A stretch of 64,000 bases of DNA from Escherichia coli (lineage in GTDB: Bacteria > Pseudomonadota > Gammaproteobacteria > Enterobacterales > Enterobacteriaceae): assembly GCF_030384885.1 (NCBI RefSeq), contig NZ_CP128613.1; one strand, written 5' to 3'. Every line of letters begins with the position of its first letter. Positions within the stretch are counted from its first letter, which is position 1. Under the pieces are notes generated by a model. It was not told where the DNA came from. It saw only the letters and a program-made list of their open reading frames with translations, and did not search any database. The position numbers and the translations under genes are program-made. This document shows, piece by piece, positions 47,532 through 51,670 of the stretch.

Positions 47532-48323
47532 ATGGGCCTTATGAACGCATTTGATTCGCAAACCGAAGATTCTTCACCTGCAATTGGTCGCAACTTGCGC
47601 AGCCGCCCGCTGGCGCGTAAAAAACTCTCCGAAATGGTGGAAGAAGAGCTGGAACAGATGATCCGCCGTCGTGAATTTGGCGAAGGTGAACAATTACCGT
47701 CTGAACGCGAACTGATGGCGTTCTTTAACGTCGGGCGTCCTTCGGTGCGTGAAGCGCTGGCAGCGTTAAAACGTAAAGGTCTGGTGCAAATAAACAACGG
47801 CGAACGCGCTCGCGTCTCACGTCCTTCTGCGGACACCATCATCGGGGAGCTTTCCGGCATGGCGAAAGATTTCCTTTCTCATCCTGGCGGAATTGCCCAT
47901 TTCGAACAATTACGTCTGTTCTTTGAATCCAGCCTGGTGCGCTATGCGGCTGAACATGCCACCGATGAGCAAATTGATTTGCTGGCAAAAGCACTGGAAA
48001 TCAACAGTCAATCGCTGGATAACAACGCGGCATTCATTCGTTCAGACGTTGATTTCCACCGCGTGCTGGCGGAGATCCCCGGCAATCCGATCTTCATGGC
48101 GATCCACGTTGCCCTGCTCGATTGGCTGATCGCCGCACGCCCAACCGTAGCTGATCAGGCTCTGCACGAGCATAACAACGTTAGCTATCAACAGCATATT
48201 GCGATCGTTGATGCGATCCGCCGCCACGATCCCGATGAAGCCGATCGCGCGTTGCAATCGCATCTCAACAGCGTCTCTGCTACCTGGCACGCCTTCGGTC
48301 AGACCACCAACAAAAAGAAATAA
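47532..48323 (+). CDS. nanR: sialic acid operon repressor NanR (GntR/FadR family)
   Basis: 263 aa with a GntR-type HTH ([26 protein letters not shown]). Confidence 0.95.
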
Positions 48324-48386
48324 TGCCACTTTAGTGAAGCAGATCGCATTATAAGCTTTCTGTATGGGGTGTTGCTTAATTGATCT

Positions 48387-48409
48387 GGTATAACAGGTAT
48401 AAAGGTATG
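48387..48409 (+). promoter_or_regulatory. NanR operator (three GGTATA repeats) in the nanA promoter
   Basis: ggtataacaggtataaaggtatg immediately upstream of nanA; the GGTATA-repeat operator is established for NanR. Confidence 0.7.
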
Positions 48410-48444
48410 TCGTTTATCAGACAAGCATCACTTCAGAGGTATTT

Positions 48445-49338
48445 ATGGCAACGAATTTACGTGGCGTAATGGCCGCACTCCTGACTCCTTTTGATCAACA
48501 ACAAGCACTGGATAAAGCGAGTCTGCGTCGCCTGGTTCAGTTCAATATTCAGCAGGGCATTGACGGCTTATATGTCGGGGGGTCGACCGGTGAAGCCTTT
48601 GTACAAAGCCTTTCCGAGCGTGAACAGGTACTGGAAATCGTCGCCGAAGAGGCGAAAGGCAAGATTAAACTCATCGCTCATGTAGGTTGCGTCAGCACTG
48701 CTGAAAGCCAACAGCTTGCGTCTTCAGCCAAACGTTATGGCTTCGATGCCGTCTCCGCCGTCACGCCGTTCTACTACCCTTTCAGCTTTGAAGAACACTG
48801 CGATCACTATCGGGCAATTATTGATTCGGCGGATGGGTTGCCGATGGTGGTGTACAACATTCCGGCGTTAAGCGGCGTTAAACTGACCCTGGATCAGATT
48901 AACACTCTGGTTACGTTGCCTGGTGTCGGCGCGCTGAAACAGACCTCTGGCGATCTCTATCAGATGGAGCAGATCCGTCGTGAACATCCGGATCTGGTGC
49001 TCTATAACGGTTACGACGAAATCTTTGCTTCTGGTTTGTTGGCGGGCGCTGATGGTGGTATCGGCAGTACTTACAACATCATGGGCTGGCGTTATCAGGG
49101 TATCGTGAAGGCGCTGAAAGAAGGCGATATCCAGACCGCGCAGAAGCTGCAAACCGAATGTAATAAAGTCATTGATTTGCTGATCAAAACGGGCGTATTC
49201 CGCGGCCTGAAAACGGTCCTGCATTATATGGATGTCGTTTCTGTGCCGCTGTGCCGCAAACCGTTTGGTCCGGTAGATGAAAAATATCTGCCAGAACTGA
49301 AAGCGCTGGCCCAGCAGTTGATGCAAGAGCGCGGGTGA
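48445..49338 (+). CDS. nanA: N-acetylneuraminate lyase
   Basis: 297 aa DHDPS-fold protein ([34 protein letters not shown]...). Confidence 0.96.
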
Positions 49339-49446
49339 GTTGTTTCCCCTCGCTCGCCCCTACCGGGTGAGGGGAAATAAACGCATCTGTACCCTACAAT
49401 TTTTATACCAAAGCGTGTGGGCATCGCCCACCGCGGGAGACTCACA

Positions 49447-50937
49447 ATGAGTACTACAACCCAGAATATCCCGTGGTATCGCCATCTCAACCGCGCACAA
49501 TGGCGGGCATTTTCCGCTGCCTGGTTGGGATATCTGCTTGACGGTTTTGATTTCGTTTTAATCGCCCTGGTACTCACCGAAGTACAAGGTGAATTCGGGC
49601 TGACGACGGTACAGGCAGCAAGCCTGATCTCCGCAGCCTTTATCTCTCGCTGGTTCGGCGGCCTGATGCTCGGCGCTATGGGTGACCGCTACGGACGTCG
49701 TCTGGCAATGGTCACCAGCATCGTTCTCTTCTCGGTCGGGACGCTGGCCTGCGGTTTTGCGCCAGGCTACATCACCATGTTTATCGCTCGTCTGGTCATC
49801 GGCATGGGGATGGCGGGTGAATACGGTTCCAGCGCCACCTATGTCATTGAAAGCTGGCCAAAGCATCTGCGTAACAAAGCCAGTGGTTTTCTGATTTCAG
49901 GCTTCTCGGTGGGTGCCGTCGTTGCCGCTCAGGTCTATAGCCTGGTGGTTCCGGTCTGGGGCTGGCGTGCGCTGTTCTTTATCGGCATTTTGCCAATCAT
50001 CTTTGCTCTCTGGCTGCGTAAAAACATCCCGGAAGCGGAAGACTGGAAAGAGAAACACGCAGGTAAAGCACCAGTACGCACAATGGTGGATATTCTCTAC
50101 CGTGGTGAACATCGTATCGCCAATATCGTGATGACACTGGCGGCGGCCACTGCGCTGTGGTTCTGCTTCGCTGGTAACCTGCAAAATGCCGCAATCGTCG
50201 CTGTTCTCGGGCTGTTATGTGCCGCAATCTTTATCAGCTTTATGGTTCAGAGTACGGGCAAACGCTGGCCAACGGGCGTAATGCTGATGGTGGTCGTGTT
50301 GTTTGCTTTCCTCTACTCATGGCCGATTCAGGCGCTGCTGCCAACGTATCTTAAAACTGAACTTGCTTATAACCCGCATACTGTCGCCAATGTGCTGTTC
50401 TTTAGTGGCTTTGGTGCGGCGGTGGGGTGCTGCGTCGGTGGCTTCCTCGGTGACTGGCTGGGAACCCGCAAAGCGTACGTTTGTAGTCTGCTGGCCTCGC
50501 AGCTGCTGATTATTCCGGTATTTGCGATTGGCGGCGCAAACGTCTGGGTGCTCGGTCTGTTACTGTTCTTCCAGCAAATGCTTGGTCAGGGCATCTCCGG
50601 GATTTTACCGAAACTGATCGGCGGTTATTTCGATACCGACCAGCGTGCGGCGGGGCTGGGCTTTACCTACAACGTTGGCGCATTGGGTGGTGCACTGGCC
50701 CCAATCCTCGGCGCGTTGATCGCTCAACGTCTGGATCTGGGCACTGCCCTGGGATCGCTTTCGTTCAGTCTTACATTTGTGGTGATCCTGCTGATTGGGC
50801 TGGATATGCCTTCTCGTGTTCAGCGTTGGCTGCGCCCGGAAGCACTGCGTACTCATGACGCTATCGATGGCAAACCATTTAGCGGTGCCGTGCCGTTTGG
50901 CAGCGCCAAAAACGATTTAGTCAAAACCAAAAGTTAA
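49447..50937 (+). CDS. nanT: sialic acid MFS transporter NanT
   Basis: ORF 49417..50937; start [19 protein letters not shown] gives 496 aa. Confidence 0.92.
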
Positions 50938-50984
50938 TCCTGTTGCCCGGTCTCTGTACCGGGCCTTTCGCTAAGGGAAGATGT

Positions 50985-51670
50985 ATGTCGTTACTTGCAC
51001 AACTGGATCAAAAAATCGCTGCTAACGGTGGCCTGATTGTCTCCTGCCAGCCGGTTCCGGACAGCCCGCTCGATAAACCCGAAATCGTCGCCGCCATGGC
51101 ATTAGCGGCAGAGCAGGCGGGCGCGGTTGCCATTCGCATTGAAGGTGTGGCAAATCTGCAAGCCACGCGTGCGGTGGTGAGCGTGCCAATTATCGGGATT
51201 GTGAAACGCGATCTGGAGGATTCTCCGGTACGCATCACGGCCTATATTGAAGATGTTGATGCGCTGGCGCAGGCGGGTGCGGACATTATCGCCATTGACG
51301 GCACCGACCGCCCGCGTCCGGTGCCTGTTGAAACGTTGCTGGCACGTATTCACCATCACGGTTTACTGGCGATGACCGACTGTTCCACGCCGGAAGACGG
51401 CCTGGCATGCCAAAAGCTGGGAGCCGAAATTATTGGCACTACGCTTTCTGGCTATACCACGCCTGAAACGCCAGAAGAGCCGGATCTGGCGCTGGTGAAA
51501 ACGTTGAGCGACGCCGGATGTCGAGTGATTGCCGAAGGGCGTTACAACACGCCTGCTCAGGCGGCAGATGCGATGCGCCACGGCGCGTGGGCGGTGACGG
51601 TCGGTTCTGCCATTACGCGTCTTGAACACATTTGTCAGTGGTACAACACAGCGATGAAAAAGGCGGTGCT

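Follow-up and report, generated by a model that had tools for sequence, protein, structure and literature searches.

REP stem-loops are described as stabilising the mRNA located upstream of them, the malE-malF junction being the type (Newbury et al. 1987, cited in PMC12306157), and as brakes on translation when fewer than 16 nt separate them from a stop codon (Liang, Rudd & Deutscher 2015, as given in PMC12306157). The stem-loop dealt with here, hereafter hairpin 1, lies between nanA and nanT in a 64,000-nt stretch of Escherichia coli DNA (contig NZ_CP128613.1 of assembly GCF_030384885.1; hereafter the window). Like the REP/BIME stabilisers, it is a stable GC-rich palindrome that occurs 3' of the first cistron of a sugar operon and that is not followed by a U-tract. 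Unlike them, it does not display the REP consensus, is present in single copy and is only a putative stabiliser, although Salmonella, Citrobacter and Enterobacter have true REP-like elements at this very place between nanA and nanT. Hairpin 1 also shares with the REPs described as brakes a stop-proximal location, a placement that recurs in 71 of 82 loci (see below), but it differs from these in sequence and ribosome stalling is in its case only proposed. In kind, hairpin 1 is an ordinary stop-proximal intercistronic stem-loop of repeat-element origin.

The second system to which this locus compares is the small RNA Spot 42, which reportedly controls galK, an internal cistron of the galETKM operon, resulting in discoordinate gal control (Moller 2002; Wang 2015). 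As in gal, region I of Spot 42 is predicted to pair inside the intercistronic spacer of a catabolic operon; unlike in gal, where pairing takes place at the galK ribosome-binding site, the nan site is located well upstream of the nanT start codon and is flanked by a strong hairpin. A literature search revealed neither a description of the nanA-nanT junction nor any transcript mapping, expression, 3'-end or half-life data for it.

Organization of the nanA-nanT junction

The location of hairpin 1 relative to the flanking CDS and to the other elements of the spacer is given in Table 1. Since nanA, nanT, nanE, nanK and nanQ all have the same orientation, hairpin 1 sits 3' of the upstream cistron within the operon. 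The spacer had earlier been given as 78-108 bp: the larger figure is the one that agrees with the nanA stop codon and with the ATG annotated in RefSeq as the start of nanT, the 78 bp being explained by an in-frame GTG at 49417 that is located within hairpin 2. No promoter-like site was found in a scan of the + strand of the spacer.

Table 1. Elements of the nanA-nanT junction, with positions in the window
Feature	Position	Strand	Basis or remark
nanA CDS (N-acetylneuraminate lyase)	48445..49338	+	ORF list, RefSeq annotation of matching E. coli loci
nanA stop codon UGA	49336-49338	+	
Hairpin 1	49340..49380	+	folding, inverted repeat; 5' arm 49340-49356, loop 49357-49363, 3' arm 49364-49380
Hairpin 1, conserved 14-bp core	49343-49356 / 49364-49377	+	outer 3 bp variable among Escherichia
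Spot 42 pairing site, UCUGUACCCUAC	49386..49397	+	perfect complement of Spot 42 nt 1-12 (GUAGGGUACAGA)
A/U-rich single-stranded linker AAUUUUUAUACCAAA, between Spot 42 site and hairpin 2	49398..49412	+	
Hairpin 2, GCG-U-GUGGGC AUC GCCCAC-CGC	49413..49434	+	in MFE and centroid structures
nanT Shine-Dalgarno GGGAG (49435-49439) and start ATG (49447-49449)	49435..49449	+	sequence
nanT CDS (sialic acid:H+ symporter)	49447..50937	+	translation, RefSeq annotation

In silico folding indicated that the 9-bp inverted repeat initially noticed, in which tttcccctc (49343-49351) is the exact reverse complement of gaggggaaa (49369-49377), corresponds to the core of a longer stem that runs unbroken over 17 bp when G.U pairs are allowed, that begins 1 nt past the nanA UGA and that is closed by a 7-nt loop, CCCCUAC. 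The minimum free energy (MFE) of this structure is -26.8 kcal/mol and it accounts for 68% of the ensemble; shuffled sequences average -11.1 kcal/mol (z = -6.55) and none out of 200 folds equally well. The folding check put forward in the earlier note thus returned a stable, non-random stem-loop. The internal sub-hairpin (cccc...gggg) mentioned in the same place did not survive it: this is a competing pairing that reuses GGGG 49371-49374 and that is absent from the MFE and centroid structures.

Downstream of the Spot 42 site, the linker is unpaired in the MFE and centroid structures, with 4 of 13 columns variable in Escherichia, and may be a site for Hfq or RNase E. Hairpin 2, which directly adjoins the nanT Shine-Dalgarno, is conserved across genera, with 98.7% of cells pairing in 13 sequences from several genera. 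Compensatory changes were detected in two of its six pairs, one outer (G-C, A-U or G.U) and one inner (C-G, G-C or U-A), yielding a covariation score that was reached by none of 500 shuffles. The GGGAG Shine-Dalgarno itself is kept in 80 loci and is mostly paired in the predicted fold, with a probability of being unpaired of 0.07.

Assignment of hairpin 1 to the REP/BIME elements was considered and rejected. Its sequence, TTTCCCCTCGCTCG...CGGGTGAGGGGAAA, departs from the REP consensus (GCCGGATG...CATCCGGC / CCGGCCTAC tail), a motif classifier designates it as Box-C-like, and blastn searches (word size 11, E <= 10) locate it in a median of one place per E. coli genome. No repeat_region is annotated at hairpin 1 in K-12, and an Rfam search of positions 48300 to 50000 returned nothing except a chance sub-threshold match to an enterovirus family.

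Conservation of hairpin 1 and palindromes found at the same site

Of 5426 complete E. coli genomes, ca. 5408 have the 50-nt region of hairpin 1, each in a single place, and in 4419 of these the identity is 100%. Among the variants sampled in this species, some have the base of the stem altered by an inserted T or by a substitution, and in others a single A of the 3' arm is replaced by T. When 11 distinct Escherichia sequences were compared, 96% of the stem cells were found to pair. In the 14-bp core, changes in the 5' arm are all one-sided and pair-preserving (C-G to U.G, found twice, G.U to A-U, and U.G to C-G), so that pairing is maintained by four of the four substitutions observed, as against 32-43% expected by chance. 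Covariation within Escherichia was not significant by shuffle statistics, divergence in this genus being too low for such statistics to be informative.

The variability of spacer columns was further compared to that of the 4-fold degenerate sites of nanA and nanT in eight Escherichia sequences, in which 235 of 392 such sites (60%) are variable. With 5 variable columns out of 36, the hairpin core varies about four-fold less often (p = 7e-8). Within hairpin 1, the 3' arm is invariant (0/14 columns; p = 4e-6), and few columns vary in the loop (1/8; p = 0.009) and in the 5' arm (4/14; p = 0.026). Low variability was also observed for the Spot 42 site plus flank (1/19; p = 1.5e-6) and for the stretch from the Shine-Dalgarno to the ATG (0/15; p = 1.7e-6). 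Likewise, only one of the 108 spacer positions differs between the window and K-12, as opposed to 24% of the 4-fold sites in nanA and 13% in nanT. The asymmetry between the two arms matches what selection on a sense-strand RNA predicts, since a C-to-U change in the 5' arm, which is rich in C, keeps a G.U pair while a G-to-A change in the G-rich 3' arm would break the pair. These sequence comparisons show that hairpin 1 is under purifying selection at the level of the sense-strand RNA, and it likely functions as an RNA structure. Purifying selection implies that hairpin 1 has a function, without telling which; because the stem-loop is real, conserved and under selection as RNA, it likely acts in cis in the nanATEK mRNA in some way.

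Independently of hairpin 1, the nanA and nanT genes of the window (48445-50937) were found to differ from those of K-12 by ca. 130 changes in 3 kb, with a patchy distribution, yet the products are nearly the same despite this synonymous divergence (ca. 100% identity for NanA and ca. 99% for NanT). A match to the junction of at least 99% was found in only 2 of 5409 genomes. This suggests that the nan locus of this strain is a mosaic or a divergent allele. A recombination mosaic could contribute to the contrast between the window and K-12, though not to the pattern seen in the eight sequences.

As regards conservation across the Enterobacteriaceae, which the earlier note had proposed to look at, hairpin 1 is kept in Escherichia, whereas unrelated palindromes occupy the site in other genera. 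For this comparison, 80 nanA loci were collected from other Enterobacteriaceae and 82 sequences were scored in total, a hairpin being counted when it had a predicted energy of <= -8 kcal/mol and started <=15 nt from the nanA stop. Such stop-proximal hairpins were detected in 71 of the 82 loci and derive from unrelated sequence families, the motif classifier recognising 38 loci as REP-like, 13 as Box-C-like and 31 as other. The 38 REP/BIME-like palindromes were found in Salmonella, Citrobacter, Enterobacter and Lelliottia, and the REP hairpins at this site range from -14 to -37 kcal/mol. A different element, CCCCTCACCCTAACCCTCTCCC-loop-GGGAGAGGGGAC, is present in Pseudocitrobacter, Kluyvera and Enterobacter sp. 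kpr-6, and further unrelated hairpins occur in Leclercia, Silvania, Atlantibacter, Siccibacter, Raoultella, Phytobacter and Edwardsiella. A stop-proximal hairpin was absent from Trabulsiella, in which the spacer is only 32-33 nt long, from one Enterobacter locus and from most Buttiauxella loci. Since Trabulsiella and the one Enterobacter locus have no hairpin at all, the hairpin is dispensable for operon function. One of the sequences examined (CACSKA010000008.1), labelled Chryseobacterium sp. 18061, carries an enterobacterial nanA-nanT locus with a spacer nearly identical to that of Citrobacter sp. 18056, and this assembly is probably mislabelled or contaminated.

E. coli genomes contain the CCCTC/GAGGG element found in Pseudocitrobacter and Kluyvera at dispersed places, numbering 17 in the median genome and 33 at most, including copies located after lldD and beside fabI/envM. 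We take this CCCCTCACCCTAACCCTCTCCC-loop-GGGAGAGGGGAC repeat to be the element known as 'Box C' (Bergler 1992; Bachellier 1999). Pseudocitrobacter faecalis has an inverted pair of the dispersed repeat at the nanA-nanT site, of which the outermost arms (CCCCTCACCC ... GGGGTGAGGGG) align with E. coli hairpin 1 and the flanks (TGAGTT..., AAACGCATC and TTCATACCAAAGCG) with those of the E. coli hairpin. The left-end motif of the Box-C-like repeat, TTTTCCCCTCACCC, occurs as GTTTCCCCTCGCTCG in the window and as CTTTTCCCTCACCCG in E. albertii. The copy proximal to fabI has TTTTCCCCTCACCC itself, and a degenerate copy near fabI reads CCCCTCGCTC, which is the 5'-arm variant of E. coli; an exact search for CCCTCTCCC...GGGAGAGGG in this area was empty and it was a relaxed search that found the repeat. 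The central CCCTCTCCC-loop-GGGAGAGGG hairpin is present at the nanA-nanT site of P. faecalis, of Pseudocitrobacter vendiensis and of three further loci (L009, L022 and L046) but is missing from the Escherichia spacer.

Hairpin 1 resembles the Box-C-like repeat in that it has the left-end motif TTT(T)CCCCTCaCcC as well as the inverted form of this motif, GGGTGAGGGGAAA, and full copies of the repeat are found at the syntenic site in Pseudocitrobacter, Kluyvera and Enterobacter sp. kpr-6. It differs by the loss of the central hairpin, because of which it is not a strict member of the family, and by its median of one BLAST place per genome. From these alignments, the Escherichia hairpin 1 is best read as a collapsed derivative of the composite repeat, kin to it by descent and no longer a strict member.

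Other observations were made on the dispersed repeat. In P. vendiensis (L008, 3395-3797), the nanA-nanT spacer reaches 403 nt and is composed of four to five tandem units of ca. 85 nt, each having the CCCTCTCCC/GGGAGAGGG-GGGTGAGGGG repeat, which corresponds to a local expansion of the element. In E. coli strain H6 (L088, 121-200), the copy located after lldD is followed by GCTGTATGTACTCCCTCAC, and GGTATGTACCCAGC is found after the repeat copy of P. faecalis. A GTAC-containing flank may thus travel with the dispersed repeat, and it resembles the core of the Spot 42 site (GUACCC).

The Spot 42 pairing site

The sequence of Spot 42 was read from the spf gene of K-12. Its complement in the spacer is located 6 nt 3' of hairpin 1 and 50 nt 5' of the nanT ATG, with all 12 nt pairing in a predicted duplex of -23.7 kcal/mol that was equalled by none of 200 shuffles, and the part of the sRNA involved is unstructured. 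The site is kept in all Escherichia species, in Leclercia, Silvania and Franconibacter and, in part, in Atlantibacter and Siccibacter; it is missing wherever REPs fill the spacer. Other regions of Spot 42 form only weak duplexes near the nanT start (-7.9 and -9.3 kcal/mol). Published lists of Spot 42 targets, drawn up after pulse over-expression, include nanT and lack nanA (PMC3295665, PMC12612679).

The loop of hairpin 1 includes CCCUAC, a hexamer that is also part of the Spot 42 site and that is complementary to nt 1-6 of the sRNA; based on composition, the probability of its chance occurrence in the loop is ca. 1e-3. No GUAGGG that could serve as an intramolecular partner of the loop was found in the nan mRNA region. 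The possibility that hairpin 1 acts as an insulator of the accessibility of the Spot 42 site was tried by partition-function modelling, which gave it no support.

Data sets on RNA 3' ends and on RNA-RNA contacts provided further observations on the operon. The Hfq-CLASH supplements have no entry for nanT, and they contain a chimera between cpxP (CpxQ) and nanA that maps to the nanA start codon. In term-seq data (Adams et al. 2021), a strong ORF-internal 3' end is located 45 nt into nanA, at ca. 48490 of the window (K-12 3373531, minus strand). This 3' end and the cpxP-nanA chimera hint at a 5'-proximal regulation of nanA. The supplements of an EPEC RIL-seq study have only ArcZ-nanE.nanT chimeras (17), which map to the nanT-nanE junction (ca. 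50938-50990) and which suggest another sRNA contact elsewhere in the nan operon.

Possible roles of hairpin 1

The reading that we favour, with a probability of about 0.4, is that hairpin 1 would be an intercistronic boundary in the nanATEK mRNA, that is, a retained repeat derivative that would serve as a 3'-exonuclease barrier for nanA. Starting from the structure, the selection, the placement and the adjacent sRNA site, all of which are observed, and from the published targeting of nanT alone, the following course of events may be proposed. Either pairing of Spot 42/Hfq at 49386-49397 or cleavage of the A/U-rich linker by RNase E would lead to the inactivation or degradation of the transcript from nanT through nanE to nanK. 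Hairpin 1, located at the new 3' end, would block 3'-to-5' exonucleases so that the nanA segment would outlive the remainder, and the levels of lyase and transporter would be set separately, as discoordinate operon expression. The REP stabilisers and the discoordinate control of gal by Spot 42 provide the analogies for such a course. Hairpin 1 could in this way act on the ratio of lyase to transporter, as the earlier note had supposed. Its position fits an uncoupling of nanA from nanT, since it abuts the nanA stop and precedes a perfect Spot 42 site by 6 nt. Besides the dispensability indicated by Trabulsiella and by one Enterobacter locus, two observations speak against the boundary. No RNA 3' end was found at hairpin 1 among the ends listed in the term-seq data of Adams et al. 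2021, which is weak evidence because the operon was uninduced in those media. The near-invariant loop counts against a simple exonuclease barrier, which needs no such loop.

In addition to its putative role as a boundary, hairpin 1 possibly acts on ribosomes, a function that is compatible with, and not exclusive of, the former. Ribosomes at the last nanA codons would stall on the stem, leading to mRNA cleavage, trans-translation and less NanA. The distance of the stem to the stop codon (1 nt) is within the <16 nt rule, its energy is comparable to that of the REP hairpins found at this site elsewhere, and a hairpin is kept within 15 nt of the stop in most loci whatever its sequence family. We nevertheless consider such a brake doubtful as the explanation of hairpin 1: the rule was established for REPs, of which hairpin 1 is not one, stop-proximal repeats may merely mark where insertions are tolerated, and the conserved loop is left unexplained. 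The loop might have a part in a two-site Spot 42 module, in which its CCCUAC would provide a kissing or toehold contact or a second docking site, or else the mRNA might trap Spot 42 in the way that the chbBC spacer traps ChiX; with the hexamer match in its favour, we still hold a module of this kind to be improbable. A further proposal gives hairpin 1 its main role in the regulation of nanT and not in the stabilisation of nanA, as a structure flanking a landing pad for Spot 42/Hfq, which it would insulate from the nanA coding sequence or where it would help Hfq to bind. For sdhC, repression by Spot 42 reportedly takes place from a pairing site located far upstream, through the recruitment of Hfq (Desnoyers & Masse 2012). 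Both the MFE and the centroid structure show a single-stranded platform of ca. 32 nt (49381-49412) between hairpins 1 and 2, which contains an A/U-rich tract together with the perfect and conserved Spot 42 site, and hairpin 2 is backed by covariation. The proposal seems unlikely when the site is modelled, since its unpaired probability is 0.51 with the hairpin, 0.51 with the hairpin deleted and 0.54-0.60 with the 5' arm shuffled; moreover, Leclercia, Silvania and Franconibacter have the site together with a wholly different upstream hairpin.

That hairpin 1 is a neutral relic, i.e. a palindromic repeat inserted at a permissive site and having no role of its own, would agree with several of the data described above: the outer ends of the P. 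faecalis inverted pair can be aligned with its arms and flanking sequences, the dispersed repeat is abundant in E. coli, the 5'-arm sequence CCCCTCGCTC recurs near fabI, some genera do without any hairpin at the site, and covariation within Escherichia is not significant. The selection data point the other way, with a core that varies so much less than synonymous sites, a 3' arm that is invariant, 5'-arm changes that all keep the pairs and a spacer that is almost the same in lineages showing 13-24% divergence at the 4-fold sites of the flanking genes, and they make neutrality unlikely. Finally, the GC-rich 17-bp stem immediately after a gene raises the question of a terminator. An intrinsic terminator was rejected, the tail AUAAACGCAUCUGU having no U-tract and the terminator scan making no call. 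A partial terminator or an attenuator between nanA and nanT is highly improbable on the same grounds, to which are added the term-seq result obtained with the operon uninduced and the fact that nanT, nanE and nanK need transcription to continue through the spacer from the nanA promoter, no promoter-like site being present on the + strand between the two genes.

The nan operon governs the use of host sialic acid by E. coli, which is a gut-colonisation trait. If hairpin 1 sets the lyase-to-transporter ratio or partners Spot 42, it would represent a compact and selectable means of discoordinate control within an operon and, at the same time, a decayed dispersed repeat that has been domesticated into a regulatory RNA structure. 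Should the two-site module prove true, the nanA-nanT spacer would act as a switch, operated by Spot 42, that makes the expression of the operon discoordinate. Overall, the recurrence of unrelated palindromes at one stop-proximal site in the Enterobacteriaceae constitutes a natural experiment, which could help to tell selection for a function from mere tolerance of such elements.
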